Source of the DNA: Escherichia coli | Lineage (GTDB): Bacteria > Pseudomonadota > Gammaproteobacteria > Enterobacterales > Enterobacteriaceae | Assembly (NCBI RefSeq): GCF_044324785.1 | Contig: NZ_CP172127.1 | Reading direction: 5' to 3' (one strand) | Length of the DNA stretch: 64,000 nucleotides | Shown here: positions 5,971-46,610 of the stretch, piece by piece | How positions within the stretch are numbered: the first letter of the stretch is position 1 | How the letters are laid out: every line of letters begins with the position of its first letter | Notes under the pieces: model-generated | What the model saw: only the letters and a program-made list of their open reading frames with translations | What the model was told of the DNA's origin: nothing | Database searches by the model: none | Position numbers and translations under genes: made by a program

Positions 5971-6348
5971 TTATTGATTTTTTCTGTGCTGTGGTTTAAA
6001 CAAACTACTGATAAATAAGAAACACAGTGCCCCCAGCGCACACCAGAACACCGCACTTAATAACCATGCCAGCTCTTGCCAGAATGAGCGCGTCGGTGAA
6101 AAAAACAGCCGCATAATAAGCATTGAACAGGGTGCCGCCAGCATTGCGCCAAACAGAGGTTTCAGGACTTCTCTACGCTGTGAAAAGAAGCTGGCAACTG
6201 CTCCAGGAAGAATGAAAAACAGCAAGCCGATTTCAGGATGCCCGGCAGCCCGAAAAGCGCCTTTCATGTGCGTCGCCAGAAAAAGGCACACCACAATGAA
6301 GAGGACAAAACAGCAGATTGCCCCCGCCCAACGTTGTTTATGTTTCAC
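5971..6348 (-). CDS. ybjM: YbjM, inner membrane protein (125 aa)
   Basis: Hydrophobic 125-aa ORF in the conserved position between grxA and ybjL. Confidence 0.8.
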   Translation of the reverse strand: MKHKQRWAGAICCFVLFIVVCLFLATHMKGAFRAAGHPEIGLLFFILPGAVASFFSQRREVLKPLFGAMLAAPCSMLIMRLFFSPTRSFWQELAWLLSAVFWCALGALCFLFISSLFKPQHRKNQ

Positions 6349-6617
6349 TCGTTCCTCCTGACACTGCGTCTATCGAACACATTTTTCGCCAGTGTGGCGT
6401 TCAGTAAGATAAAGCCGCTTCGCATTCCATGCTAATATAGGCCAACGCAATTCATATAGCCGTTGATACCTAATGTGATTACACTAGTAAAATATATTGT
6501 TACTTTACTATCGTTTAGGTGCGCTGAATGAATCTGCGCCCTGAATTCTGGTAAAAAACATTATCGTAAATTACCATTTCTTTCAACAGCTTACTAGTAA
6601 ACAAGAAGTTAGCCTCC

Positions 6618-8303
6618 GTGAATATAAACGTCGCCGAATTGTTAAATGGGAATTACATTCTGTTATTATTTGTGGTCCTCGCGCTTGGGCTATGTCTCGG
6701 GAAATTACGACTTGGTTCGATCCAACTGGGTAATTCCATTGGCGTTTTGGTCGTATCACTGTTATTAGGCCAACAACATTTCAGCATTAACACCGACGCG
6801 CTTAATCTTGGCTTTATGCTGTTTATTTTCTGCGTCGGGGTCGAAGCCGGACCGAACTTTTTTTCCATTTTTTTTCGCGATGGGAAAAATTACCTAATGT
6901 TAGCACTGGTGATGGTTGGCAGTGCGCTGGTGATCGCCTTAGGGTTAGGTAAGCTGTTTGGCTGGGATATTGGCCTGACGGCCGGTATGTTAGCAGGCTC
7001 TATGACGTCAACACCGGTTTTGGTCGGTGCTGGCGATACACTGCGTCATTCCGGCATGGAAAGCAGGCAGCTCTCACTGGCACTGGATAATCTGAGCCTC
7101 GGGTATGCCTTAACCTATTTAATCGGTCTGGTGAGTTTAATTGTTGGTGCGCGTTACTTGCCGAAATTGCAGCATCAGGACTTACAGACCAGCGCCCAGC
7201 AAATCGCCCGCGAACGTGGCCTGGACACTGATGCCAACCGTAAGGTTTATTTACCGGTGATCCGCGCCTACCGCGTCGGCCCGGAGCTGGTAGCCTGGAC
7301 CGACGGCAAAAATCTGCGTGAACTGGGTATTTATCGACAAACTGGCTGTTACATTGAACGTATTCGGCGTAACGGGATTCTGGCAAATCCAGACGGTGAT
7401 GCCGTACTACAAATGGGCGATGAAATAGCGTTGGTAGGCTATCCTGACGCCCACGCCCGACTCGATCCCAGTTTCCGTAATGGCAAAGAAGTTTTCGATC
7501 GTGACCTTCTCGACATGCGTATCGTCACTGAAGAAGTGGTCGTTAAAAACCATAACGCTGTTGGCAAACGCCTGGCACAACTGAAGTTGACCGATCACGG
7601 TTGCTTCCTTAACCGCGTCATTCGTAGCCAGATTGAGATGCCGATTGATGACAACGTCGTGCTTAACAAAGGTGACGTTTTACAAGTCAGCGGCGATGCC
7701 CGCCGGGTAAAAACCATCGCCGATCGCATCGGCTTTATCTCGATTCACAGCCAGGTCACTGACTTGCTGGCATTCTGCGCCTTCTTTGTTATTGGGCTGA
7801 TGATCGGGATGATCACCTTCCAGTTCAGCACATTCAGTTTCGGTATGGGGAACGCTGCCGGGTTGTTATTCGCCGGAATTATGCTGGGCTTTATGCGTGC
7901 TAACCACCCGACCTTCGGTTACATTCCGCAGGGTGCATTAAGCATGGTGAAGGAGTTCGGCTTGATGGTGTTTATGGCAGGCGTTGGTCTGAGCGCTGGT
8001 AGCGGTATTAATAACGGCCTGGGCGCGATTGGCGGTCAGATGTTGATTGCCGGATTGATTGTCAGTCTGGTGCCCGTGGTTATCTGCTTCTTGTTCGGTG
8101 CTTATGTATTGCGAATGAACCGCGCACTGTTGTTCGGCGCAATGATGGGCGCACGCACCTGCGCGCCGGCAATGGAGATCATCAGTGATACAGCTCGCAG
8201 TAATATCCCGGCGCTGGGCTATGCGGGCACTTACGCAATCGCCAACGTCCTGCTGACGCTGGCAGGGACAATCATCGTCATGGTATGGCCAGGATTAGGA
8301 TAA
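6618..8303 (+). CDS. ybjL: YbjL, putative AAE-family transporter with TrkA-C domains (561 aa)
   Basis: 561-aa ORF with duplicated membrane domains flanking two cytoplasmic regulatory domains; length and context match YbjL. Confidence 0.88.
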
Positions 8304-8344
8304 AACTGAAGTTGCCCTGAAAATGAAATTTTTTTGCACAACCG

Positions 8345-8374
8345 CAGAACTTTTCCGCAGGGCATCAGTCTTAA
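8345..8374 (+). promoter_or_regulatory. Sigma-E-type promoter of rybB (-35 gaactt, -10 gtctta)
   Basis: ggaactt-like -35 and tctna-like -10 with about 16 bp spacing immediately upstream of the RybB 5' end; RybB is an established sigma-E-dependent sRNA. Confidence 0.6.
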
Positions 8375-8379
8375 TTAGT

Positions 8380-8458
8380 GCCACTGCTTTTCTTTGATGT
8401 CCCCATTTTGTGGAGCCCATCAACCCCGCCATTTTGGTTCAAGGTTGGTGGGTTTTTT
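8380..8458 (+). ncRNA. rybB: RybB small RNA (Hfq-dependent, represses OMP mRNAs)
   Basis: Sequence gccactgcttttctttgatgtccccattttgtggagcccatcaaccccgccattttggttcaaggttggtgggtttttt matches my recollection of RybB including the 3' terminator hairpin and U-run; lies in the ybjL-rcdA intergenic region as in K-12. Confidence 0.82.
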
Positions 8459-8477
8459 GTTATCTAAAATTTATCTA

Positions 8478-9014
8478 CTACCCTGCAACCCTCTCAACCA
8501 TCCTCAAAATCTCCTCGCGCGATAGCGGCTTACGGTCGGTGACAAAATGCAGCGTCATCCCCTCAATAAACGCATCAAGCGCGCGGGCGGTTCCGGGTTC
8601 AAACCATTGTTCGAGCGTTTGCTGACTGCGCTGCATCCAGTTTTGCATTACCGTTTTTAATAGCGGTTTTCGGCTAGCCAGCGCGTAGAGCTGGTACATC
8701 AGCTCCATGTTATCCGGCGTTGCAACCTGTGAGCTGTAAATCATATCGGTGATAGCCTGGCATGCGCCTTGAGCATCACTAACATCGCTAAAAAATGCCT
8801 GATATTGCCGGGACATGATCTCAGTAAAACTGCTGAACGCCTCCAGCAACAACTCATCAATTCCTGAAAAATAGTAGGTCATCGACCCCAACGGTACCCC
8901 GGCAAGGGTAGCAATTTTGCGGTGCGTAACAGCATGTATTCCATAAAGTTTCACCGCCTCCAGCGTGGCCTGGATAATTTTTTCTCGCCGTTGCGGATCG
9001 TTAGCGCGACGCAT
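8478..9014 (-). CDS. rcdA: TetR-family transcriptional regulator RcdA (YbjK), 178 aa
   Basis: ORF from [49 protein letters not shown] has a TetR-type HTH and matches RcdA. Confidence 0.85.
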
Positions 9015-33841: not shown

Positions 33842-36274
33842 ATGACCACACTGAAACTGGATACGCTCAGCGACCGCATTAAAGCGCACAAAAATGCGCT
33901 GGTGCATATTGTGAAACCGCCGGTCTGTACCGAGCGCGCGCAGCACTATACTGAGATGTATCAACAACATCTCGATAAGCCGATCCCGGTACGTCGCGCG
34001 CTGGCGCTGGCGCATCACCTGGCGAATCGCACCATCTGGATCAAGCACGATGAGTTGATCATTGGCAACCAGGCAAGCGAAGTTCGCGCCGCGCCGATCT
34101 TCCCGGAATATACCGTCTCCTGGATCGAAAAAGAGATTGATGATCTGGCGGATCGTCCGGGTGCTGGTTTTGCGGTGAGCGAAGAGAACAAACGTGTTCT
34201 GCATGAAGTGTGCCCTTGGTGGCGCGGTCAGACGGTACAGGATCGCTGCTACGGCATGTTTACCGATGAGCAAAAAGGTCTGCTGGCGACCGGAATCATT
34301 AAAGCGGAAGGCAATATGACCTCCGGCGATGCGCACCTGGCGGTGAATTTCCCGCTACTGCTGGAAAAAGGTCTTGATGGTCTGCGCGAGAAAGTAGCGG
34401 AACGTCGCTCGCGCATCAACCTGACGGTGCTGGAAGATTTGCACGGCGAGCAGTTCCTGAAAGCGATTGATATCGTGCTGGTGGCAGTCAGTGAACACAT
34501 TGAACGTTTCGCTGCCCTGGCGCGTGAAATGGCAGCCACTGAAACCCGCGAAAGCCGTCGCGATGAACTGCTGGCGATAGCAGAAAACTGCGATCTTATC
34601 GCCCACCAGCCGCCGCAGACTTTCTGGCAGGCGCTGCAACTGTGCTACTTCATCCAGTTGATTTTGCAGATCGAATCTAACGGTCACTCGGTATCGTTTG
34701 GTCGTATGGACCAGTATCTCTACCCGTACTATCGCCGCGACGTTGAACTGAACCAGACACTGGATCGTGAACACGCCATCGAGATGCTGCATAGCTGCTG
34801 GTTAAAATTGCTGGAAGTGAACAAAATCCGCTCCGGCTCGCACTCGAAAGCCTCTGCGGGAAGTCCGCTGTATCAGAACGTCACCATTGGCGGACAAAAT
34901 CTGGTTGATGGTCAACCAATGGACGCGGTGAATCCACTCTCTTACGCGATCCTCGAATCCTGCGGTCGCCTGCGTTCTACTCAGCCTAACCTCAGCGTGC
35001 GTTACCATGCAGGAATGAGCAACGATTTCCTCGACGCCTGCGTACAGGTGATCCGCTGCGGCTTCGGGATGCCGGCGTTCAACAACGACGAAATCGTCAT
35101 CCCGGAATTTATTAAACTCGGTATTGAACCGCAGGACGCTTACGACTATGCAGCGATTGGTTGTATCGAAACCGCCGTCGGTGGCAAATGGGGCTATCGC
35201 TGTACCGGCATGAGCTTTATCAACTTCGCCCGCGTGATGCTGGCGGCGCTGGAAGGCGGGCGTGATGCCACCAGCGGCAAAGTGTTCCTGCCACAAGAAA
35301 AAGCGTTGTCAGCGGGTAACTTCAACAACTTCGATGAAGTAATGGACGCATGGGATACGCAAATCCGTTACTACACGCGTAAATCAATCGAAATCGAATA
35401 TGTCGTCGACACCATGCTGGAAGAGAACGTACACGATATTCTCTGCTCGGCGCTGGTGGATGACTGTATTGAGCGAGCGAAAAGTATCAAGCAAGGCGGC
35501 GCTAAATATGACTGGGTTTCTGGCCTGCAGGTCGGCATTGCTAACCTCGGCAACAGCCTGGCGGCAGTGAAGAAACTGGTATTTGAACAGGGCGCGATTG
35601 GTCAGCAACAGCTGGCTGCCGCACTGGCGGATGACTTCGACGGCCTGACTCACGAGCAGCTGCGTCAGCGGCTGATTAACGGTGCGCCTAAGTACGGCAA
35701 CGACGATGATACTGTCGATACGCTGCTGGCTCGCGCTTATCAGACCTATATCGACGAACTAAAACAGTACCATAACCCGCGCTATGGTCGTGGTCCGGTT
35801 GGCGGCAATTATTACGCGGGTACGTCATCTATCTCCGCTAACGTACCCTTTGGCGCGCAGACGATGGCAACGCCGGACGGGCGTAAAGCCCACACCCCGC
35901 TGGCAGAAGGCGCTAGTCCGGCCTCCGGTACTGATCATCTTGGCCCTACTGCGGTCATTGGCTCAGTGGGTAAACTGCCTACGGCCGCGATTCTCGGCGG
36001 CGTGTTGCTCAACCAGAAACTGAATCCGGCAACGCTGGAGAACGAATCTGACAAGCAGAAACTGATGATCCTGCTACGCACCTTCTTTGAAGTGCATAAA
36101 GGCTGGCATATTCAGTACAACATCGTTTCCCGCGAAACGCTGCTGGAAGCGAAAAAACATCCGGATCAGTACCGCGATCTGGTAGTGCGTGTCGCGGGTT
36201 ATTCCGCCTTCTTCACTGCGCTCTCTCCAGACGCACAGGACGATATCATCGCCCGTACTGAACATATGCTGTAA
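33842..36274 (+). CDS. pflF: Glycyl-radical enzyme PflF (YbiW), PFL-like, 810 aa
   Basis: 810-aa ORF with the C-terminal glycyl-radical motif ([10 protein letters not shown]) and PFL-like domain; matches YbiW. Confidence 0.9.
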
Positions 36275-36278
36275 CTCT

Positions 36279-36306
36279 TCCGCCCGGCGGCCACCGTCGC
36301 CGGGCC
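36279..36306 (+). terminator. Hairpin after pflF (gcccggcggccaccgtcgccgggc)
   Basis: GC-rich inverted repeat directly after the pflF stop. Confidence 0.45.
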
Positions 36307-36419
36307 AAATCATTCACATCATCAATTTCATCCTCGCTTTCATTCGAAATATAATTTGTGCTCTGCGTCACATTGTTATTACACTGTTACGGTTTCATTT
36401 TCGAGCCAGGAGCACACCT

Positions 36420-37235
36420 ATGAGCGTAAAAGTTATCGTCACAGACATGGACGGTACTTTTCTTAACGACGCCAAAACGTACAACCAACCACGTTTTATG
36501 GCGCAATATCAGGAACTGAAAAAGCGCGGCATTAAGTTCGTTGTCGCCAGCGGTAATCAGTATTACCAGCTTATTTCGTTCTTTCCTGAGCTAAAGGATG
36601 AGATCTCTTTTGTCGCGGAAAACGGCGCACTGGTTTACGAACATGGCAAGCAACTGTTCCACGGCGAACTGACCCGACATGAATCGCGGATTGTTATTGG
36701 CGAGTTGCTAAAAGATAAGCAACTCAATTTTGTCGCCTGCGGTCTGCAAAGTGCATATGTCAGCGAAAACGCCCCCGAAGCATTCGTCGCACTGATGGCA
36801 AAACACTACCATCGCCTGAAACCTGTAAAAGATTATCAGGAGATTGACGACGTACTGTTCAAGTTTTCGCTCAACCTGCCGGATGAACAAATCCCGTTAG
36901 TGATCGACAAACTGCACGTAGCGCTCGACGGCATTATGAAGCCGGTTACCAGTGGTTTTGGCTTTATCGACCTGATTATTCCTGGCCTGCATAAAGCGAA
37001 TGGTATTTCGCGGTTACTGAAACGCTGGGATCTGTCACCGCAAAATGTGGTAGCGATTGGCGACAGCGGTAACGATGCGGAGATGCTGAAAATGGCGCGT
37101 TATTCCTTTGCGATGGGCAATGCTGCGGAAAACATTAAACAAATCGCCCGTTACGCTACCGATGATAATAATCATGAAGGCGCGCTGAATGTGATTCAGG
37201 CGGTGCTGGATAACACATCCCCTTTTAACAGCTGA
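36420..37235 (+). CDS. ybiV: Sugar phosphatase YbiV (SupH), HAD/Cof family, 271 aa
   Basis: [51 protein letters not shown]...; paralogous to YbjI in this same window; the upstream ORF-track extension from 36189 is rejected. Confidence 0.9.
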
Positions 37236-37386
37236 CCTCTCTACCGGAGCTATGCGCTCCGGTTTTCCCTTCTTTTTACATCCTTTACATCACATCAAAT
37301 CATTAAACTTCCATTAACTTATTTATAACTTATATTGTCACATGCAAATCAGCATAGTTTCGAATGAAAGTTAATGCGAGGTGGTT

Positions 37387-38652
37387 ATGGCTTCTACTTT
37401 TACCAGCGACACATTGCCTGCCGATCACAAAGCAGCTATCCGTCAGATGAAGCACGCGCTGCGGGCGCAGCTTGGCGACGTCCAGCAGATCTTTAATCAG
37501 CTAAGCGATGACATTGCCACGCGAGTGGCTGAAATCAACGCACTCAAAGCACAGGGCGATGCCGTCTGGCCGGTGCTGTCTTATGCCGATATCAAAGCAG
37601 GTCATGTTACTGCAGAGCAGCGCGAACAAATTAAACGTCGCGGTTGTGCGGTGATAAAAGGCCATTTCCCCCGCGAACAAGCGCTAGGCTGGGATCAGTC
37701 GATGCTGGACTATCTGGACCGCAACCGCTTTGACGAGGTCTACAAAGGCCCCGGCGATAATTTCTTCGGGACACTCAGCGCTTCACGTCCCGAGATTTAC
37801 CCCATCTACTGGTCGCAGGCGCAAATGCAGGCCCGCCAGAGTGAAGAAATGGCGAATGTGCAGTCGTTTCTCAATCGTCTGTGGACATTTGAAAGTGATG
37901 GAAAGCAATGGTTTAACCCGGATGTGAGCGTCATCTACCCTGACCGTATCCGCCGCCGTCCGCCCGGAACGACCTCCAAAGGTCTTGGAGCGCATACCGA
38001 CTCCGGGGCGCTGGAACGCTGGCTGCTTCCAGCGTATCAGCACGTTTTCGCCAACGTCTTTAATGGCAATCTGGCGAAATACGATCCCTGGCATGCGGCA
38101 CATCGTACGGAAGTTGAAGAGTACACGGTGGACAACACCACCAAATGTTCCGTGTTTCGGACATTCCAGGGCTGGACAGCGCTCTCTGATATGCTGCCTG
38201 GTCAGGGGTTGCTGCACGTCGTGCCCATTCCTGAAGCCATGGCGTACGTACTGTTACGTCCGCTGCTTGATGATGTGCCGGAGGATGAACTGTGCGGCGT
38301 AGCGCCCGGAAGAGTGTTGCCGGTATCAGAGCAATGGCATCCACTGTTAATTGAGGCGTTAACCAGCATTCCAAAACTCGAGGCCGGAGACTCCGTCTGG
38401 TGGCACTGCGACGTCATCCATTCCGTTGCCCCCGTTGAAAATCAACAGGGTTGGGGCAACGTGATGTACATTCCTGCGGCACCGATGTGCGAGAAAAATC
38501 TTGCCTACGCGCACAAGGTGAAGGCCGCACTGGAAAAAGGCGCATCGCCGGGCGACTTCCCGCGCGAGGACTATGAAACAAACTGGGAAGGACGCTTTAC
38601 GCTTGCCGACCTCAACATTCACGGTAAGCGAGCGTTGGGAATCGACAGCTGA
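37387..38652 (+). CDS. ybiU: YbiU, DUF1479 protein (2OG-oxygenase-like), 421 aa
   Basis: ORF from MASTFTSDTLPADHKAAIRQMKHALRAQL... matches YbiU. Confidence 0.85.
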   Translation: MASTFTSDTLPADHKAAIRQMKHALRAQLGDVQQIFNQLSDDIATRVAEINALKAQGDAVWPVLSYADIKAGHVTAEQREQIKRRGCAVIKGHFPREQALGWDQSMLDYLDRNRFDEVYKGPGDNFFGTLSASRPEIYPIYWSQAQMQARQSEEMANVQSFLNRLWTFESDGKQWFNPDVSVIYPDRIRRRPPGTTSKGLGAHTDSGALERWLLPAYQHVFANVFNGNLAKYDPWHAAHRTEVEEYTVDNTTKCSVFRTFQGWTALSDMLPGQGLLHVVPIPEAMAYVLLRPLLDDVPEDELCGVAPGRVLPVSEQWHPLLIEALTSIPKLEAGDSVWWHCDVIHSVAPVENQQGWGNVMYIPAAPMCEKNLAYAHKVKAALEKGASPGDFPREDYETNWEGRFTLADLNIHGKRALGIDS

Positions 38653-39722
38653 GTGTCGTACAGCCCTTCCCGTTCCACGGCGGTGTTCCCTTTTCCTGGG
38701 CGAACCCGCCGCACTGACTCCCGCACCGCCAATCGTCCGTGCAGCAGCAGCGAGCCCACCGGAGCATCCGGGCGAATCAGCCGCTGTTGCAACATTTGCA
38801 CCGCTTCATTGCCTAGCTCATCGCGTGGCACATGCACAGCCGTCAGGGGAACATCCTCGATTGCCGCAAGGTTAAAGCCGTCGATACTCATCACCGAGAC
38901 ATCCTGTGGTACGCGCAGACCACGACGATGTAGCGCATTTACCGTTCCCGCCGCCATAAAATCCCCGCCGACCAGAAACGCCGTCGGCAACGTCTTGCCA
39001 TTGGCGGCATCCAGCCACGCTCCGACCTTTTCTTCCGCTTCTTTAGCGCTAAAACTGCTGATATTCAGCAAATGACGGTCATGGTGAAAGGCCAGATTAT
39101 GCTGACGCCATGATTCTTTAATCCCTGCAAACCGCTGCTCCATAGTGTAGCGGCGCAGGCACATCACATTCATCACCTCCCGGTGACCCATTTCAAACAG
39201 ATAGCGGGCGGCGAACGCGCCAATTAACCGATGGTCCGGCGCAATCGCCGGGAGGCGCATTCGTTCATCACGGCAGTTGATCAGCACACAAGGCTTAGCG
39301 AGATCGGCGGCCAGATCATGGATGTGCGGATCGTCAATCCCCAGCAGGATCGCCGCCTGCGTATCTGCTTCATTCATCCGCGAGAGAAATAGCGCGGGAT
39401 CGCTGTCAAACTCCTCCAGCGCGCAGTAACGCAGCCGCACTTCATGCGGCGATAACGCTTTGCTGATGCTCTGGATCACACGGTAATAAAAGATATCAGA
39501 TCGTTGGTCAAAAGCGCGTTGCGGCGCGAAAATAATCAGGTTGTTCAGCAACATACGACCTGCTGCCATGCCATCCATCACGCCCAACTCACGCGCGCAG
39601 GCCAGCACCTGTTCGCGAGCGCGTGCACTGGTATTCGCTTTGCCAGCCAGCACCCGCGAAACCGTACTCGGCGATAGCCCGGTACGTGCGGCGATATCGG
39701 CGATTTTCAGCTTCTTGTCCAT
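38619..39722 (-). CDS. LacI-family transcriptional regulator (accessory, not in K-12 at this position), about 367 aa with an unusually long C-terminal tail
   Basis: MDKKLKIADIAARTGLSPSTVSRVLAGKANTSARAREQVLACARELGV... is a LacI-type HTH followed by a periplasmic-binding-protein-like sugar domain; its 3' end overlaps the ybiU 3' end by 34 nt. Confidence 0.7.
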   Translation of the reverse strand: MDKKLKIADIAARTGLSPSTVSRVLAGKANTSARAREQVLACARELGVMDGMAAGRMLLNNLIIFAPQRAFDQRSDIFYYRVIQSISKALSPHEVRLRYCALEEFDSDPALFLSRMNEADTQAAILLGIDDPHIHDLAADLAKPCVLINCRDERMRLPAIAPDHRLIGAFAARYLFEMGHREVMNVMCLRRYTMEQRFAGIKESWRQHNLAFHHDRHLLNISSFSAKEAEEKVGAWLDAANGKTLPTAFLVGGDFMAAGTVNALHRRGLRVPQDVSVMSIDGFNLAAIEDVPLTAVHVPRDELGNEAVQMLQQRLIRPDAPVGSLLLHGRLAVRESVRRVRPGKGNTAVEREGLYDTQLSIPNARLP

Positions 39723-40016
39723 TTTGTGATCTGCCTCTAATTCGGAAATGACAGAATTTTCATGAGCAAAAAAGCCCATTCTGTCTGGCATTAAATCCAT
39801 TTCAGTAATGTATATCAGTCACTCATGGAAAAACGTGCACAAAACCCGCTTTCTTTCGCTTTTAGGGTCTCTTACTGTGAATTGGTAGAACAACTTCCAT
39901 ACAAAAATAATGGAAAAACGAACAACAAAGACTTTATTTATCAAAAAGTTAAAAGTGGTGTGACAACTCCATTCTGACGTTGCCGCACAAACCCTATACC
40001 ATTCTGTGGAGTGCAT
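39723..40016. promoter_or_regulatory. Divergent control region between the LacI-family regulator and the MFS-GH31 genes
   Basis: 294-bp AT-rich, ORF-free intergenic region between divergently oriented genes; position inferred, no operator identified. Confidence 0.4.
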
Positions 40017-41318
40017 ATGAGTCAGGGTATCAATAACGATATGACTGCCAGTAAACCGCGCCATATCGTCAAAAATCTGCGTTGGTGGATACTGGTCCTT
40101 TTTTTGCTCGGTGTTACTGTCAACTACATCACGCGTAACTCGCTGGGTATTCTCGCCCCCGAACTGAAAAGCAGCCTGGGGATTACCACCGAACAATATT
40201 CCTGGATTGTAGGTGCTTTCCAGCTCGCCTATACCCTATTCCAACCGTTGTGCGGATGGCTGATTGACGTCATTGGCCTCAAACTGGGCTTTATGATCTG
40301 CGCGGGACTGTGGGCACTGGCCTGTCTGATGCATGCGGGGGCGGGAAACTGGGTACATCTGGCGCTGTTGCGCTTCTTTATGGGCGGTGCGGAAGCCGCA
40401 GCAACCCCAGCAAACGCCAAAACCATCGGTGAATGGTTTCCAAAATCAGAACGCCCGATCGCCGCAGGCTGGGCAGGCGTCGGTTTTTCCATCGGTGCCA
40501 TGCTGGCCCCACCGATTATCTATTTTGCCCACGCTTCATTCGGCTGGCAGGGTGCATTTATGTTCACTGGCATCCTGGCGATGCTGTGGGTCGTGCTGTG
40601 GTGGGCGTTCTATCACAGCCCGGATAAGCATCCTAACCTCAGCAAAGCCGAGCTGGACTTTATTCGCCAGGATAACGAAGCGCCCCCGGTCAAGTTACCC
40701 TTTCTGACCGCACTGAAAACCGTGGGCAAAAATAAACGCTTTTACGGTATCGCTATCCCGGCCTTTATGGCAGAACCGGCGTGGGCGGTGATGAGTTTCT
40801 GGGTTCCGCTATACCTGTCCAAAACCTATGGCATGGACCTGAAGCAGATCGCATTATTCGCCTGGTTGCCGTTCCTCGCCGCTGATCTTGGCAGTATTGC
40901 CAGCGGCTATCTGACCAAACTTTACACCCGCCTGTTTGGGCTGAGTCGTGTGAACTCCGTTGTCGCATCATCGGTCAGTGGCGCATTCCTGATGGTTTCG
41001 CTGGCGGTGATGGCCTTTACCAATAACCCGTATATCGCCATCGTCCTTATCTCCATCGGCGGCTTCGGTCACCAGATCATCTCCTGCATGCTAAGCGCAC
41101 TGGTGGTGGAATCCTTCGACAAAGGTCAGATGGCCACTGTTAACGGCATGCGCGGTTCTGCCGCGTGGATCGCAAGTTTCCTGTTCTCCCTGATAATCGG
41201 GGTTACCGCAGACAAAATCGGCTTTAACCCCCTGTTTATCGCCATGGGCTTCTTTGACCTGATTGGCGCTTTCTTCCTGGTCACCTTTATTGCTGAACGT
41301 CGCGCAAAACGCGCCTGA
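40017..41318 (+). CDS. MFS transporter resembling the anion:cation symporter family (ExuT/GudP/DgoT-like), about 433 aa
   Basis: 12-TM ORF with N-terminal sequence ...NYITRNSLGILAPELKSSLGITTEQYSWIVGAFQLAYTLFQP typical of ACS-family transporters; RBS ggag 6 nt before the ATG at 40017. Confidence 0.7.
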   Translation: MSQGINNDMTASKPRHIVKNLRWWILVLFLLGVTVNYITRNSLGILAPELKSSLGITTEQYSWIVGAFQLAYTLFQPLCGWLIDVIGLKLGFMICAGLWALACLMHAGAGNWVHLALLRFFMGGAEAAATPANAKTIGEWFPKSERPIAAGWAGVGFSIGAMLAPPIIYFAHASFGWQGAFMFTGILAMLWVVLWWAFYHSPDKHPNLSKAELDFIRQDNEAPPVKLPFLTALKTVGKNKRFYGIAIPAFMAEPAWAVMSFWVPLYLSKTYGMDLKQIALFAWLPFLAADLGSIASGYLTKLYTRLFGLSRVNSVVASSVSGAFLMVSLAVMAFTNNPYIAIVLISIGGFGHQIISCMLSALVVESFDKGQMATVNGMRGSAAWIASFLFSLIIGVTADKIGFNPLFIAMGFFDLIGAFFLVTFIAERRAKRA

Positions 41319-41332
41319 GAGTGGATGTAAAC

Positions 41333-43696
41333 ATGAAAACGCTGAAAAACTGGACCCTGCACAAACAGTCTGCCCACCACGTTGAACTGCTGGTCGATGG
41401 CCAGCATATCCTGTGCCTGTACGTGCTGGAAGAAAATCTGTTCCGCGTGCTGTTAAAACGCAAAGGCGAGCTGGCGCTGGATCGCACCTGGAGCATTGCT
41501 CCGGCGCAGGATGTGCCATGGGAAGGGCGCAGCCGCGAAGATCTCAGCGGCTTTAGCCTGCCCGCGTGGACATTGATCCAGCACGACGACACCGTGGTTA
41601 TCGCCACCGAGTCACTGCGTGTCACCGTTCACCAGCCGCTGTGGCTGGAGTGGCACTATCGTAACAACGAAGGCGAATGGCTGCCGTTGGTGAATGACCG
41701 CCCGACCAGCGCTTATCTGCTGAATGCCCACGGCGATGGCGTGGCACACTATCAGAGCCGTCGTAAAGATGAACGCTTTTATGGCCTCGGAGATAAAGCC
41801 GGCGACCTGCAACGCAACGGTAAACGTTACGAGATGCGTAACCTCGACGCGATGGGCTACAACGCCGTTAGTACTGACCCGCTGTACAAACACATTCCAT
41901 TCACCATCACCCGCCGCGATGACATTAGCTTCGGCCTGTTTTATGACAACCTCAGCAGCTGCTGGCTGGATCTGGGCAACGAGATCGACAACTACCACAC
42001 CGCCTATCGCCGCTGGCAGGCGGAAGCGGGTGATATCGACTACTACCTGTTTACCGGCGAACGCGTACTTGATATCACCAAAGCCTTCGTACGCCTGACC
42101 GGAAAAACCCTGTTCGGACCGAAATGGAGCCTGGGCTACAGCGGTTCAACTATGCACTACACCGATGCGCCGGACGCACAAAATCAGTTGATGAACTTTA
42201 TCCGCCTGTGTGAAGAACATGCAATTCCCTGCGATTCGTTCCAGCTCTCTTCCGGTTATACCTCAATTAACGGCAAACGCTATGTGTTCAACTGGAACTA
42301 CGACAAAGTGCCGCAGCCGAAAGTGATGAGCCAGGCATTTCACAATGCTGGTTTGCACCTGGCCGCCAATATCAAGCCGTGCCTGTTGCAGGATCACCCA
42401 CGCTATAACGAAGTGGCAGAAAGAGGACTGTTCATCCGTGATTCAGAAACAGATGAACCAGAACGTTCCAGCTTCTGGGATGACGAAGGTTCTAACCTCG
42501 ACTTTACTAATCCGCAGACCATCCAGTGGTGGCAGGAAGGCGTGACCACACAGCTTCTGGAGATGGGTATCGACTCCACCTGGAACGACAACAACGAATT
42601 CGAAGTATGGGACGGTGAAGCACGCTGTCACGGCTTTGGTCAGACGATCGCGATCAAACATATTCGCCCAGTGATGCCACTGCTGATGATGCGAGCCTCG
42701 ATGGAAGCCCAGCAGCGTTTCGCTCCGGAAAAACGTCCGTACTTGATCTCCCGCTCCGGCTGCGCGGGAATGCAGCGCTACGTGCAGACCTGGAGTGGCG
42801 ATAACCGCACTAGCTGGGACACTCTGCGCTACAACACCCGCATGGGTCTGGGGATGAGCCTCTCCGGGTTGTATAACCTCGGTCACGACGTCGGCGGTTT
42901 CTCCGGTGATAAACCGGACCCGGAACTGTTTGTACGCTGGGTACAAAACGGCGTGATGCATCCGCGCTTTACGATTCACTCATGGAACGATGACCATACC
43001 GTAAACGAACCGTGGATGTATCCGGGCGTCACTCCGGCGATCCGCAGCGCTATTGAGTTGCGCTATCGCCTGCTGCCCTACTTTTATACCCTGATGTGGC
43101 AGGCATACGCCGATGATGAACCAATGCTACGTCCGACTTTCCTTGACCACGAGCACGACGTTCAGACTTTTGAAGAGTGTGATGACTTCCTGCTTGGTCG
43201 CGATATTTTGGTTGCCAGCGTCGTAGAGCAAGGCGAGCGCCAGCGCCGTGTATGGCTGCCAGATAACGAAACTGGCTGGTACGATTTCTACAACGGCGAA
43301 TGGTTCAGTGGCGGTCAGTGGATCACCCTCGACGCACCGCTGGAGAAACTGCCGCTGATGGTGCGTGCCGGGGCTGGTCTACCGCTCAGCAAACGCATCA
43401 CCTATGTGAGCGCAGAACAAGACGATACCCGCGAACTGAAACTGTTCCCGCTGAAAGGTGTGGGCACAACGTCCGGCCTGCTGTTTGAAGACGATGGCGA
43501 AAGCTGGGGCTACCAAACTGGTAATGCGCTTTGGGTGGAATGGGAAATGGTTTGCGATGGGGCGACCATCAACCTGAAAGTCAACGCGCGCGGGGATTAT
43601 CGTCCTGCATGGAGTGCACTGAAAGTGTCATTACCATTGGAAGAAAAACGCACGCTGCTGGTCAATGGTGTTGAAGGGAGTGAATGGATGCGTTAA
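41333..43696 (+). CDS. Glycoside hydrolase family 31 alpha-glycosidase (about 787 aa)
   Basis: Carries GH31 hallmark motifs: TWNDNNEF (catalytic nucleophile region), RSGCAGMQRY...WSGDN (acid/base region), GHDVGGF; tightly linked (2-14 bp) downstream of the transporter. Confidence 0.75.
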   Translation: MKTLKNWTLHKQSAHHVELLVDGQHILCLYVLEENLFRVLLKRKGELALDRTWSIAPAQDVPWEGRSREDLSGFSLPAWTLIQHDDTVVIATESLRVTVHQPLWLEWHYRNNEGEWLPLVNDRPTSAYLLNAHGDGVAHYQSRRKDERFYGLGDKAGDLQRNGKRYEMRNLDAMGYNAVSTDPLYKHIPFTITRRDDISFGLFYDNLSSCWLDLGNEIDNYHTAYRRWQAEAGDIDYYLFTGERVLDITKAFVRLTGKTLFGPKWSLGYSGSTMHYTDAPDAQNQLMNFIRLCEEHAIPCDSFQLSSGYTSINGKRYVFNWNYDKVPQPKVMSQAFHNAGLHLAANIKPCLLQDHPRYNEVAERGLFIRDSETDEPERSSFWDDEGSNLDFTNPQTIQWWQEGVTTQLLEMGIDSTWNDNNEFEVWDGEARCHGFGQTIAIKHIRPVMPLLMMRASMEAQQRFAPEKRPYLISRSGCAGMQRYVQTWSGDNRTSWDTLRYNTRMGLGMSLSGLYNLGHDVGGFSGDKPDPELFVRWVQNGVMHPRFTIHSWNDDHTVNEPWMYPGVTPAIRSAIELRYRLLPYFYTLMWQAYADDEPMLRPTFLDHEHDVQTFEECDDFLLGRDILVASVVEQGERQRRVWLPDNETGWYDFYNGEWFSGGQWITLDAPLEKLPLMVRAGAGLPLSKRITYVSAEQDDTRELKLFPLKGVGTTSGLLFEDDGESWGYQTGNALWVEWEMVCDGATINLKVNARGDYRPAWSALKVSLPLEEKRTLLVNGVEGSEWMR

Positions 43697-43875
43697 ATCA
43701 TTACCGGGGCCGGGAGGCGACTGCACCTTACCCGGTCCAGCCATCGAATCCTTTACCTCAGTATTTCACGCTGCAGGAAGGCAGCAAACCTGTAAACCCC
43801 GGGAGCTTAAATAAGTAAGTGACCGGGGTGAACAGGTGAAGCCAATGCATCTGCCGCATGAAAGACGGCGGGGAA

Positions 43876-45471
43876 TTAACCGTCGATCCCTTTACTACGC
43901 AGGTAATCTTCGTAATTACCGCTAAAGTCAATAACGCGTTCCGGGGTGATTTCCAGAATGCGGGTCGCCAGGGAGCTTACGAACTCACGGTCGTGTGAAA
44001 CAAAGATCAGCGTGCCCTGATACAGTTCCAGCGCCATGTTCAGCGACTCGATGGATTCCATATCCAGGTGGTTGGTCGGTTCGTCCATGATCAGAATGTT
44101 CGGCTTCTGCATCATTAACTTACCAAACAGCATCCGCCCTTTTTCCCCACCGGAAAGCACTTTCGCTGGTTTTTTGATGTCGTCCTGGCTGAACAGCAAA
44201 CGACCGAGAATGCTGCGTACCGCCTGCTCGTCATCGCCTTCCTGCTTCCACTGGCTCATCCATTCGAACACGGTCAGATCATTTTCAAACTCATATTCGT
44301 GGTCCTGAGCATAGTAACCAATGCGCGCGTTTTCAGACCATTTTACGGTGCCGCTGTCCGGTTGCAGATCGCCCACCAGCGTTTTCAGCAGCGTTGATTT
44401 ACCGACGCCGTTGGTACCCAGTACCGCAAGTTTTTCACCGACCTCCAGCAGCAGGTTGAGATTTTTAAACAGTGGACCGTTATCAAACCCTTTGGTCAGA
44501 CCTTCCACTTCCAGCGCGTTACGGAACAGTTTCTTATCCTGTTCAAAACGGATGAACGGGTTCTGACGGCTGGAGGCTTTCACCTCTTCCAGTTTGATTT
44601 TATCAATCTGGCGCGCGCGCGAAGTTGCCTGGCGAGATTTCGAGGCGTTGGCGCTAAAGCGGCTAACGAAAGATTGCAGCTCAGCAATCTGCGCTTTCTT
44701 CTTGGCGTTATCAGCCAGCAGACGTTCACGCGCCTGGGTCGCCGCCGTCATGTACTCATCGTAGTTGCCCGGATAAACGCGCAGCTCGCCGTAATCCAGA
44801 TCCGCCATATGGGTACAAACCATGTTAAGGAAGTGACGGTCGTGCGAGATGATGATCATGGTGCTGTCACGCTCGTTCAGCACCTGTTCCAGCCAACGAA
44901 TGGTGTCGATGTCGAGGTTGTTGGTCGGTTCGTCGAGCAGGAGAATGTCTGGATCAGCAAAAAGCGCCTGTGCCAGCAGCACACGCAGCTTCCAGCCAGG
45001 AGCAACTTCACTCATCGGGCCGTAGTGCTGTTCCACTGGAATTCCCACGCCAAGCAACAATTCACCGGCGCGAGCTTCCGCAGAGTAACCGTCCATTTCG
45101 CCGTATTTCACTTCCAGATCGGCCACTTTATAGCCGTCTTCTTCACTCATTTCCGGCAAAGCATAGATGCGGTCACGCTCCTGCTTCACTTCCCACAACT
45201 CTTTATGCCCCATGATCACCGTATCCAGCACAGTGAACTCTTCAAAGGCAAACTGATCCTGACGCAGCTTACCAATGCGCTCGTTGGGATCGAGGGAAAC
45301 GTTACCCAACGTCGGCTCTAAGTCGCCGCCGAGGATCTTCATAAAGGTGGATTTACCACTACCGTTCGCGCCAATCAGGCCGTAACGGTTGCCGCCGCCA
45401 AATTTGACGGAAATGTTTTCAAACAACGGCTTACTGCCGAACTGCATGGTGACGTTACTGGAAACTAACAC
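43876..45471 (-). CDS. ybiT: ABC-F family ATPase YbiT (tandem ABC domains), about 530 aa, GTG start
   Basis: (M)[41 protein letters not shown]... two ABC cassettes without a TM domain; matches YbiT. Confidence 0.9.
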
Positions 45472-45689
45472 AGGCGTATCCTGAAAAGAGATATGACAAA
45501 CCGCGCATTATGCCATAAGTCTGAAAGAAGATCCTGCTCCTCGCTTAAGGTCTACACTCAAGCCAAAGGCAAAAAATGTGATTTCGTACACATCTGATTT
45601 CACTGTGAGCTGGAATGAACTTATAATGCGCTTCCAATACTCTAATATTCTCAACCCAATGGCCTGCCAGGCACAAAATCTCGCTTAAC

Positions 45690-46610
45690 ATGAATATGAA
45701 ATTGAAAACATTATTCGCAGCGGCCTTCGCTGTTGTCGGCTTTTGCAGTACCGCCTCTGCGGTAACTTATCCTCTGCCAACCGACGGGAGTCGCCTGGTT
45801 GGTCAGAATCAGGTGATCACCATTCCTGAAGGTAACACTCAGCCGCTGGAGTATTTTGCCGCCGAGTACCAGATGGGGCTTTCCAATATGATGGAAGCGA
45901 ACCCCGGTGTGGATACCTTCCTGCCGAAAGGCGGTACTGTACTGAACATTCCGCAGCAGCTGATCCTGCCGGATACCGTTCATGAAGGCATCGTCATTAA
46001 CAGTGCAGAGATGCGTCTGTATTACTATCCGAAAGGAACCAACACTGTTATCGTGCTGCCGATCGGCATTGGTCAGTTAGGCAAAGACACGCCTATCAAC
46101 TGGACCACCAAAGTTGAGCGTAAAAAAGCAGGCCCGACCTGGACGCCGACCGCCAAAATGCACGCAGAGTACCGCGCTGCGGGCGAACCGCTTCCGGCTG
46201 TCGTTCCGGCAGGTCCGGATAACCCGATGGGTCTGTATGCACTCTACATCGGTCGCCTGTACGCTATCCATGGCACCAACGCCAACTTCGGTATCGGCCT
46301 GCGTGTAAGTCATGGCTGTGTGCGTCTGCGTAACGAAGACATTAAATTCCTGTTCGAGAAAGTGCCTGTCGGTACTCGCGTGCAGTTTATTGATGAGCCG
46401 GTGAAAGCGACTACCGAACCAGACGGCAGCCGTTACATTGAAGTCCATAACCCGCTGTCTACCACCGAAGCCCAGTTTGAAGGTCAGGAAATTGTGCCAA
46501 TTACCCTGACGAAGAGCGTGCAGACAGTGACCGGTCAGCCAGATGTTGATCAGGTTGTTCTGGATGAAGCGATCAAAAATCGTTCCGGGATGCCGGTTCG
46601 TCTGAATTAA
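45690..46610 (+). CDS. ldtB: L,D-transpeptidase LdtB (YbiS), 306 aa
   Basis: [24 protein letters not shown] signal peptide, LysM-like region and YkuD domain with the catalytic HGCVRL motif region ([12 protein letters not shown]). Confidence 0.9.

Follow-up and report, generated by a model that had tools for sequence, protein, structure and literature searches.

Convergent genes often meet at their 3′ ends, and where a variably present segment of a chromosome ends at the same place, the history of the junction and that of the reading frames are easily confused. In the window analysed here, a stretch of 64,000 nucleotides from Escherichia coli (assembly GCF_044324785.1, contig NZ_CP172127.1), a LacI-family regulator gene continues beyond the usual end of its family and terminates inside ybiU, on the opposite strand, at the edge of a segment that most E. 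coli genomes lack. This raises the question of whether the unusual C-terminus was created when a segment was joined to ybiU, or whether it was inherited with the regulator. We consider it very probable that it combines a native, conserved tail with a 10-codon read-through originating from the TGA stop codon of ybiU, and that both are older than the presence/absence junction of E. coli. We document how the locus is built, that the tail is conserved, which ybiU stop codons accompany the extension, and the synteny of the cluster and clade structure of the regulators; translation of the 367-aa C-terminus and activity of the regulator are predicted from the sequence.

Anatomy of the locus

The regulator is encoded on the minus strand (38619–39722) by a reading frame that is open across 38619–39800. 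Its likely start is the conserved MDKK codon at 39722 (MDKKLKI), giving a protein of 367 aa. PGAP sometimes places the start at 39779 instead, giving 386 aa. On the plus strand, ybiU (DUF1479 / Gig2-like; 37387–38652, 421 aa) ends in …HGKRALGIDS with a TGA stop codon at 38650–38652, and the two genes share 34 nt (38619–38652, both strands), both stop codons included. In identical E. coli genomes, RefSeq/PGAP has the two genes overlapping in the same way (CDS 7320–8480 versus ybiU 6088–7353), and it also carries the 367-aa version of the regulator with the overlap. Coordinates and annotation thus bear out the original observation of a frame that extends beyond the LacI core (…LAVRES) by about 30 codons and enters ybiU by 34 nt. 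As this overlap is a plain reading of the sequence, no question of chance arises; it is an ordinary convergent overlap that had been annotated before. A literature search on ybiU plus ybiT found nothing relevant to the locus.

On the other side of the regulator lie, on the plus strand, a PGAP-annotated MFS transporter of the D-galactonate / anionic-sugar transporter subfamily type (40017–41318; TIGR00893, E = 4e-79, below the curated cut-off) and a PGAP-annotated GH31 glycoside hydrolase (41333–43696, 787 aa, alpha-glucosidase-like), which among solved structures comes closest to glucosidase II alpha and to a bacterial GH31 alpha-glycosidase (E about 1e-79). They are followed on the minus strand by the ABC-F ATPase gene ybiT (43876–45471), which encodes 531 aa ending in KGIDG-stop, versus 530 aa ending in KGIE-stop in K-12. 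An operator search for inverted repeats with default extension in the regulator/MFS intergenic region (39723–40016) found nothing. Conserved blocks in this region are visible by alignment only.

Family membership and intactness of the regulator

The LacI-family core, with its helix-turn-helix (HTH) and sugar-binding domains, covers residues 1–336 (38715–39722, minus strand) and ends in …LLLHGRLAVRES. Homology to PurR, CcpA, LacI and the NCBIfam LacI-family profiles ends at residues 336–342 (…LAVRESV), individual profiles stopping at 334–342, so that about 30 codons lie beyond the core. At the other end, the PurR and CcpA alignments begin at residues 5–7; the PurR alignment spans residues 7–337, residue 337 being paired with residue 330 of the 340-residue PurR chain. 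The HTH domain PF00356 is present, the effector-binding core (PF13377 / PF00532) is complete to its last strand, and the matches to NCBIfam profiles extend to the final profile positions; PF00356, PF00532 and PF13377 are all on record for the regulator's cluster, and PF00356 also for its orthologues. No NCBIfam profile of a named equivalog (PurR, RbsR, CytR, GalR etc.) was matched above its curated cut-off, the best score being 113.6 bits versus 382. These profile matches identify the regulator as a LacI/GalR family member outside the curated equivalogs. It shares with the repressors PurR, CcpA, RbsR, CytR and LacI an N-terminal HTH followed by a periplasmic-binding-protein-like effector domain, but carries a conserved basic C-terminal tail of 20 residues that PurR, CcpA and RbsR lack.

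It has been proposed that the regulator is 3′-truncated, then extended, and possibly impaired in the window strain; it could also be a pseudogene of another kind. Some E. coli assemblies do have a natural allele in which codon 335 has changed from GAG to the nonsense codon TAG and the entire tail is lost, which indicates that loss of the C-terminus is tolerated, at least transiently, and about 89% of complete E. coli genomes lack the segment that holds the gene. Decay is nevertheless very unlikely here. The regulator matches its orthologues along its whole length, at 70–92% identity over all 356 core-plus-tail residues, with no frameshift or internal stop, leaving truncation and impairment unsupported, and the core follows PurR over the range given above. 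In addition, the window allele shows 100% identity with its best match, strain M7424, over 1.6 kb, and 99.7–99.9% with the other sampled segment-bearing genomes, and PGAP calls it an intact CDS. Judged by these alignments, the regulator is intact, with no sign of truncation or impairment.

A conserved, family-specific tail

Beyond the core, residues 337–356 (38655–38714, minus strand; SVRRVRPGKGNTAVEREGLYD / VRRVRPGKGNTAVEREGLYD) form a family-specific tail, conserved throughout Enterobacteriaceae in each of the 79 orthologues that could be assessed. Its basic consensus across the orthologue group reads S-V-R-R-[VI]-R-x-G-x-x-R-T-A-V-E-R-E-G-L-Y-D-x. Conservation was assessed on two sets, an alignment of 24 orthologues (A1) and 70 in-register orthologues; in the latter, V337, R338, R339, R341, V349, G353, L354 and Y355 are invariant, and diversity at codon positions 1/2/3 amounts to 0.158/0.114/0.450 in the tail versus 0.166/0.103/0.474 in the core. 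Since the variation of the tail is distributed among codon positions like that of the core, with third positions the most variable, the tail is native and, on this codon-level evidence, under purifying selection. Twenty of the 30 residues that had been taken for a junction artefact are therefore ordinary parts of the protein, conserved in every orthologue.

The length of the tail is itself unremarkable in this family. The C-terminal tetramerisation helix of LacI likewise follows the last core strand and adds about 30 residues, and in the same search that yielded the PurR alignment, the match to LacI, whose chains have 360 aa, goes no further than residue 328. The resemblance is one of position and length, whereas in composition the two differ: the tail of the regulator is rich in Arg, Lys, Pro and Gly, and in the full C-terminal stretch SVRRVRPGKGNTAVEREGLYDTQLSIPNARLP, which includes 3 Pro and 3 Gly, no heptad pattern is seen. 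An amphipathic LacI-type tetramerisation helix with a leucine heptad was not found in the sequence, nor does AlphaFold2 show a helix, at low confidence, which leaves tetramerisation unsupported. Its pLDDT is below 50 for residues 327–367, from a shallow input alignment of 24 close orthologues, so that the structure model is silent on the role of the conserved tail. The conservation of the 20 residues nevertheless suggests that they have a function.

A stop-codon toggle shared with ybiU

The remainder of the C-terminus (38619–38654, minus strand) consists of the variable residue 357, a 10-codon extension (Q358–P367, QLSIPNARLP) and a TGA stop codon at 38619–38621, and the predicted end of the 367-aa product is …EGLYDTQLSIPNARLP. 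The extension is encoded antisense to the ybiU end …HGKRALGIDS-stop, and since the two frames have their third codon positions in common, its sequence is wholly dictated by ybiU. At the entrance to the extension lies the tetranucleotide 38649–38652, CTGA on the plus strand and TCAG on the regulator strand; because ybiU stops at TGA, codon 358 of the regulator is CAG (Gln) and offers no stop.

A survey of 80 species-representative loci revealed how closely the two ends are correlated. In 52 of them the regulator is 357 aa long (356 aa in one) and stops at the homologous position; both genes there stop within a shared [T/C]TA[A/G], with a 4-nt overlap, the ybiU stop being always TAA or TAG and the site reading TTAA (33), TTAG (9), CTAA (5) or CTAG (5). 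By contrast, all eight representatives with the 34-nt overlap have TCAG, TCAA or TCAC at this site, a TGA stop in ybiU and a regulator of 367 aa. Both states occur side by side within Salmonella: S. enterica has GAT AGT TAA and a ybiU stop of TAA, while S. diarizonae has GAC AGT CAA and a ybiU stop of TGA, the difference between TTAA and TCAA being one transition.

These patterns are consistent with a simple mechanism. In the usual state, the stops of the regulator and ybiU share [T/C]TA[A/G], with a 4-nt overlap and a 357-aa regulator. A change of the ybiU stop to TGA leaves YbiU unchanged, yet on the opposite strand it produces CA[G/A] or CAC, which are sense codons, and the regulator stop is gone. 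Translation would then continue through 10 codons antisense to the conserved C-terminus of ybiU, to a TGA arising from '…T CAy' (Ile/Leu-His), giving 367 aa and a 34-nt overlap. Such a change very probably took place in the ancestor of one regulator clade, whose members today occur in E. coli, Kluyvera, Pseudocitrobacter and Salmonella, and was reverted in some S. enterica. Compared with most orthologues, a native stop has indeed been lost, as had been suspected, but the loss adds only 10 codons, stems from the TGA of ybiU and is inherited within a clade, instead of having been made at a junction.

Stop-codon movement is the accepted origin of convergent overlaps; short ones of this kind are frequent, and E. 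coli K-12 has 75 annotated convergent overlapping pairs (PMC4161906). The pair described here fits this class: two opposed, independently conserved genes share their 3′-terminal nucleotides, shorter orthologues exist, and the difference in length maps to an ancestral stop codon that has been lost. As in other convergent pairs arising from stop-codon loss, the stop is abolished and the frame runs to the next in-frame stop inside the 3′ end of the opposite-strand neighbour. It differs from them in that the trigger can be pinpointed, namely a switch of the partner's stop from TAA/TAG to TGA within a shared 4-nt double-stop, and in that both states coexist in one genus, Salmonella.

The 10 residues, or the longer antisense overlap, could instead be adaptive, by contributing to the stability or oligomerisation of the regulator or by coupling ybiU and the regulator through convergent transcription. 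The extended form persists in four genera, a tight convergent overlap is kept in 60 of the 66 loci where ybiU is adjacent, and there is no room for a terminator between the genes, a terminator and promoter scan around the overlap giving counts no higher than in shuffled sequence. Yet the extension follows exactly from reading the conserved YbiU residues GKRALG in antisense, it varies where the last residues of YbiU vary, and it has been reverted in S. enterica. A copy of the cluster located away from ybiU, moreover, has an unrelated tail after GLYD. An adaptive origin accordingly seems most improbable, and we infer that the ten extra residues are a functionally neutral by-product.

Distribution, synteny and age of the extended form

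Outside E. coli, 367-aa regulators were found in Kluyvera (5 species), Pseudocitrobacter (3 species) and S. diarizonae, and in eight of these nine species the gene overlaps ybiU by 34 nt exactly as in the window; the remaining one, Kluyvera genomosp. 3, has a disrupted ybiU. A three-gene cluster, headed by the regulator and continued by the MFS transporter and GH31 genes, occupies the same ybiU–ybiT site in > 50 enterobacterial species, and the order ybiT-GH31-MFS-LacI-ybiU-ybiV-ybiW is found in Kluyvera, Pseudocitrobacter, Citrobacter, Salmonella and Enterobacter. In a neighbour-joining (NJ) tree built on residues 1–356 only, all 367-aa forms fall into one clade, with the 357-aa S. enterica form nested inside. 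The presence of the 367-aa form in other genera, with the same synteny and in one clade with E. coli, indicates that the extension predates the E. coli polymorphism. The tail had been thought a product of the junction, a view contradicted by the regulators of Kluyvera, Pseudocitrobacter and S. diarizonae, which share the C-terminus at full length.

The regulator of the window is nearest to those of Kluyvera (89–92% aa identity), while ybiU, ybiV and ybiT are nearest to their counterparts in Citrobacter or Salmonella; comparisons of the MFS transporter and GH31 genes all lie near 90% and give a weak signal on whether the phylogeny of the segment departs from that of the flanking core genes.

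The variably present segment and its boundary in E. coli

Within E. coli, the variably present segment (38640–43882, both strands) comprises the last 4 codons of ybiU, the regulator, the MFS transporter, the GH31 gene, a dispersed repeat and the last 2–3 codons of ybiT. It occurs in 576 of 5426 complete genomes, and the junction region is covered in all 576, with 98–100% identity among the sampled matches. On the ybiU side near-identity to segment-free strains breaks off at 38639/38640, and on the ybiT side it returns at 43883; the alignment to K-12 ends at 38639–38645 and resumes at 43883, and matches of other genomes stop at query position 340 or 346, that is, at 38639 or 38645 of the window. 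The last 13 nt of ybiU have diverged from segment-free E. coli (GIDS-stop versus GMDV-stop, at the same stop position), and nothing aligns past the stop. The boundary thus falls inside the interval originally flagged (38619–38720), though at 38639/38640, just left of the 38653–38710 that had been proposed for it.

This boundary gives some substance to the view that a segment was inserted beside ybiU in E. coli, that the native stop was lost at the recombination junction and that all of the tail, about 30 aa, derives from the junction. The presence/absence boundary at 38640–38652 falls inside the overlap, the last 7 regulator codons and the stop (38619–38639) lie within sequence identical to segment-free strains, and most orthologues end 10 codons sooner. 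Against this stand the conservation of 20 of the 30 tail residues in every orthologue, the recurrence of the same 367-aa end and 34-nt overlap in 8 species representatives of 3 other genera with the same synteny, and the grouping of the extended forms in a single clade. Because the cluster lies between ybiU and ybiT family-wide, the joint between regulator and ybiU is an old gene–gene boundary and not that of a new insertion. The E. coli haplotype breakpoint (38640–38652) coincides with the toggle site, so that E. coli sequence alone cannot prove whether CAG was inherited or re-created there; codon 358 is also CAG in Kluyvera, which argues for inheritance. Taken with this shared codon, an origin of the tail at an insertion junction is hardly plausible, and we retain the native tail with a read-through inherited from an ancestor.

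In place of the segment, K-12 has a 240-bp spacer without homology to it, whose palindromes we take to be REP-like. A search of this spacer for segment remnants (blastn, word size 7) returned only REP-like matches to other intergenic sites, which give no direction as between deletion and insertion. The shorter ybiT of K-12 was considered as a deletion scar and rejected, the same ending being found in many segment-bearing species. The similar ends of YbiU (GIDS-stop) and YbiT (GIDG-stop) were considered as terminal inverted repeats of a mobile segment and treated as a coincidence; the string shared by the ends of ybiU and ybiT usually measures 3–5 nt, and 6 nt in the window, across 54 loci (52 species loci, the window and K-12).

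The locus resembles variably present E. coli segments with a REP-filled empty site in its presence/absence pattern and in its sharp bounds at the ends of two convergent core genes. Of the usual features of a genomic island, within-species presence/absence polymorphism is found, but atypical composition, mobility genes and a tRNA site are not: GC content is an unremarkable 54–57.5% in the three segment genes versus 47.5–55.6% in the flanking genes, only three metabolic or regulatory genes are annotated in the segment, and an Rfam scan of 36000–46000 returned no matches. Unlike a classical horizontally acquired island, the segment has neither integrase nor tRNA and no evident direct repeats, and the same three genes stand at the same site in other species. 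A diverged Escherichia lineage also has the three genes, at 96.6–98.4% nucleotide identity versus 95.4–95.9% for the flanking core genes. Read from its gene content and synteny, the putative island is an old syntenic enterobacterial cluster that is absent from most E. coli.

Implications

A more ambitious reading, which we regard as unlikely, holds that the basic tail (S-V-R-R-I-R-P-G-K-R-R-T-A-V-E-R-E-G-L-Y-D) would be an undescribed functional module for oligomerisation or for contact with DNA or a partner, that the stop-to-stop overlap in ~60 species would couple YbiU expression to the MFS–GH31 cluster by convergent transcription, and that the TAA/TGA toggle would switch regulator isoforms.

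The inherited read-through behind a native tail has little import beyond annotation hygiene: annotation should treat the regulator gene neither as a pseudogene nor as an artefact of the junction. It also provides a teaching case, in which, within a 4-nt double-stop, a change from TAA to TGA in one gene leaves its own protein unchanged and lengthens that of its partner, and in which a presence/absence boundary and an overlap of reading frames can coincide without a causal tie.

The regulator tail and its overlap with ybiU

The E. coli window carries, in order, ybiW, ybiV, ybiU (37387-38652, + strand), a gene for a LacI-family regulator (38619-39722, − strand), genes for an MFS transporter (40017-41318, + strand) and a GH31 hydrolase (41333-43696, + strand), and ybiT (43876-45471, − strand). 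The regulator ORF and ybiU overlap over 34 nt (38619-38652, both stops counted); gene and overlap are already recorded in RefSeq, in its annotation of identical genomes. Matches of the regulator to PurR, CcpA, LacI and NCBIfam LacI-family profiles all stop at residues 336-342 (…LAVRESV), and therefore about 30 codons lie beyond the family core. ORF coordinates and family alignments thus bear out the ~30-codon tail and the 34-nt overlap of the original prediction. Its explanation, a native stop lost at a recombination junction, is contradicted by homologous regulators elsewhere that share the full-length C-terminus.

All 24 orthologues aligned, from many enterobacterial genera, conserve residues 337-356 (VRRVRPGKGNTAVEREGLYD); their usual length is 357 aa, with the stop one residue past GLYD. 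Among the 70 in-register orthologues used for a codon-position test, V337, R338, R339, R341, V349, G353, L354 and Y355 are invariant, and nucleotide diversity at codon positions 1/2/3 is 0.158/0.114/0.450 in the tail, compared with 0.166/0.103/0.474 in the core. This pattern indicates purifying selection on the translated sequence. Two thirds of the "extra" tail thus belong natively to the protein as a family-specific element, probably functional because under selection, and the last ten codons (QLSIPNARLP) alone extend past the usual orthologue end. Confidence of the AlphaFold2 model is low for residues 327-367. C-terminal extensions of ~30 residues are known in the LacI family, such as the LacI tetramerisation helix, which the tail described here does not resemble.

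An impaired regulator, the other option originally considered, finds no support: the protein aligns with orthologues end to end, with neither frameshift nor internal stop, no part of its core is missing by comparison with PurR, and a 1.6-kb stretch matches the closest E. coli genome at 100% identity, the figure for the other segment-bearing genomes sampled being 99.7-99.9%. Certain E. coli assemblies (protein cluster P0004, with 86 member sequences) do carry a distinct nonsense allele, E335*, in which GAG is replaced by TAG (window 38718-38720; 2503-2505 of comparison locus L092). It cuts the regulator to 334 aa and so deletes the tail entirely; elsewhere in the 221-nt junction region the sequence is identical to the window. 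At the other end of the gene (39723-39800), PGAP places the start variably among E. coli genomes: M7424 is annotated from 39779 (386 aa), MS1718 from 39722 (367 aa). The 367-aa start is more likely, because orthologues mostly begin MDKK/MEKK and GAGG lies ~10 nt upstream of 39722. Two regulator/MFS intergenic blocks are conserved over six genera (39748-39763 and 39876-39903). One, immediately 5' of the regulator start, is a near-palindrome (ATGACAGAATTTTCAT, with the form ATGAAAAnnTTTTCAT in other genera), and the other reads TGTGAATTGGTAGAACAACTTCCATACA; both are candidate operators or promoter elements.

The ten-codon extension follows the ybiU stop codon

Script-based classification of 80 loci from species-representative genomes revealed two main states. 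At 52 loci the regulator has 356/357 aa, the overlap is 4 nt (TTAA 33, TTAG 9, CTAA 5, CTAG 5) and the ybiU stop is TAA or TAG, never TGA. At eight loci (four Kluyvera, three Pseudocitrobacter and S. diarizonae) a 367-aa regulator overlaps ybiU by 34 nt, the ybiU stop is always TGA and the homologous tetranucleotide is TCAG (6), TCAA (1) or TCAC (1). A TGA stop reads TCA on the opposite strand; the regulator-frame triplet thereby becomes a sense codon, CAx, and the regulator frame stays open until a TGA antisense to "…T CAy" (Ile/Leu-His) codons of ybiU. Both states occur within Salmonella, one transition apart: S. enterica ends …GAT AGT TAA with ybiU stop TAA, and S. diarizonae …GAC AGT CAA with ybiU stop TGA. 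Codon 358 is CAG in E. coli and Kluyvera alike. A fifth Kluyvera has a 367-aa regulator adjoining an apparently disrupted ybiU; in this genome (genomosp. 3 YDC799, locus L012) the best ybiU match stops prematurely near residue 358, and the overlap is lost.

Coordinates place the third codon positions of both frames in coincidence within the overlap, and the extension (…IPNARLP) is therefore what the conserved YbiU GKRALGI dictates; its conservation says nothing about function. In a cluster copy away from ybiU, between transposase genes, the tail after GLYD is unrelated. We infer that the ten residues are a neutral passenger.

In an NJ tree built from residues 1-356 only, all 367-aa regulators (E. 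coli, Kluyvera, Pseudocitrobacter, S. diarizonae) form one clade, within which the 357-aa S. enterica regulator is nested. The extension therefore arose a single time, in the common ancestor of these regulators, with a reversion in S. enterica, and is older than the presence/absence polymorphism in E. coli. The feature is real and ordinary. Convergent overlaps that arise when a stop codon shifts are textbook knowledge. E. coli K-12 has 75 annotated convergent overlapping pairs (PMC4161906).

Segment boundaries and the empty site

The segment (38640-43882) is carried by 576 of 5426 complete E. coli genomes; in the remaining genomes with a match, the match stops at 38639 or 38645. Relative to K-12, identity extends up to 38639, ybiU then diverges over its final 13 nt (8/13 identities; GIDS* vs GMDV*, stop position unchanged), no alignment is found past the ybiU stop until the end of ybiT, and identity returns at 43883, within the last ybiT codons (KGIDG* vs KGIE*). 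The left boundary thus falls within 38619-38720, as expected, at 38640-38652, slightly left of the predicted 38653-38710.

The K-12 empty site is a 240-bp spacer with REP-like palindromes (locus L002, 3354-3593), in which no segment remnant is detectable. These palindromes (GCCTGATGCGGCG…CGCCTTATCCGGCCTAC) match REP copies at other intergenic sites in related genomes, and a GC-rich hairpin (CCGTCACCCCGA…TCGGGGTGACGG) directly follows the ybiT stop. K-12-type and window-type ybiU/ybiT endings are both natural variants in segment-bearing species; what separates the two E. coli haplotypes is thus their history of recombination, not a simple scar. In the window haplotype, YbiU and YbiT both end G-I-D-x-stop (38638-38652; 43876-43890), so that GGA ATC GAC AGC TGA and GGG ATC GAC GGT TAA form a short inverted repeat at the segment borders, probably a coincidence, because at the 54 loci with both genes (window and K-12 included) the two ends usually have just 3-5 nt in common. 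The GH31-ybiT spacer (43697-43875, …CCCGGGAGCTTAAATAAGTAAGTGACCGGGGTGA…), homologous to that of Citrobacter, belongs to a dispersed repeat that occurs, at 60-80% identity, in a median of 7 places per E. coli genome, genomes without the segment included; its sequence resembles ERIC/IRU elements.

Origin of the segment

The order ybiT-GH31-MFS-LacI-ybiU is kept in Kluyvera, Pseudocitrobacter, Citrobacter, Salmonella, Enterobacter and dozens more. This conserved order, an unremarkable GC content and an annotation free of mobility genes set the segment apart from classical islands. A typical enterobacterial ybiT-GH31-MFS-LacI-ybiU-ybiV locus also appears in L027, an assembly labelled Chryseobacterium sp. 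18061 and probably mislabelled or contaminated; its counterpart in "Citrobacter sp. 18056", which belongs to the same project, is nearly identical in type. One E. coli assembly (L011; GCA_002519925.1, contig NOPB01000030.1) has a diverged copy of the regulator-MFS-GH31 cluster, with a 371-aa regulator of 71% identity, at a distance from ybiU and ybiT, between transposase-like genes and adjoining a molybdopterin oxidoreductase operon; the cluster can therefore also move as a unit.

The segment is present in the diverged Escherichia lineage MOD1-EC7003 with 96.6-98.4% nucleotide identity, the flanking core genes being 95.4-95.9% identical, which would fit long residence in the genus and loss in most E. 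coli. Across comparison loci L012-L091, the E. coli regulator is nearest to Kluyvera (89-92% aa identity), whereas ybiU, ybiV and ybiT are nearest to Citrobacter or Salmonella, a disagreement that hints at an old exchange by homologous replacement. Citrobacter regulators are scattered over the tree, and together with the gene-tree conflict this suggests that the cluster may have been repeatedly replaced by homologous recombination among Enterobacteriaceae.
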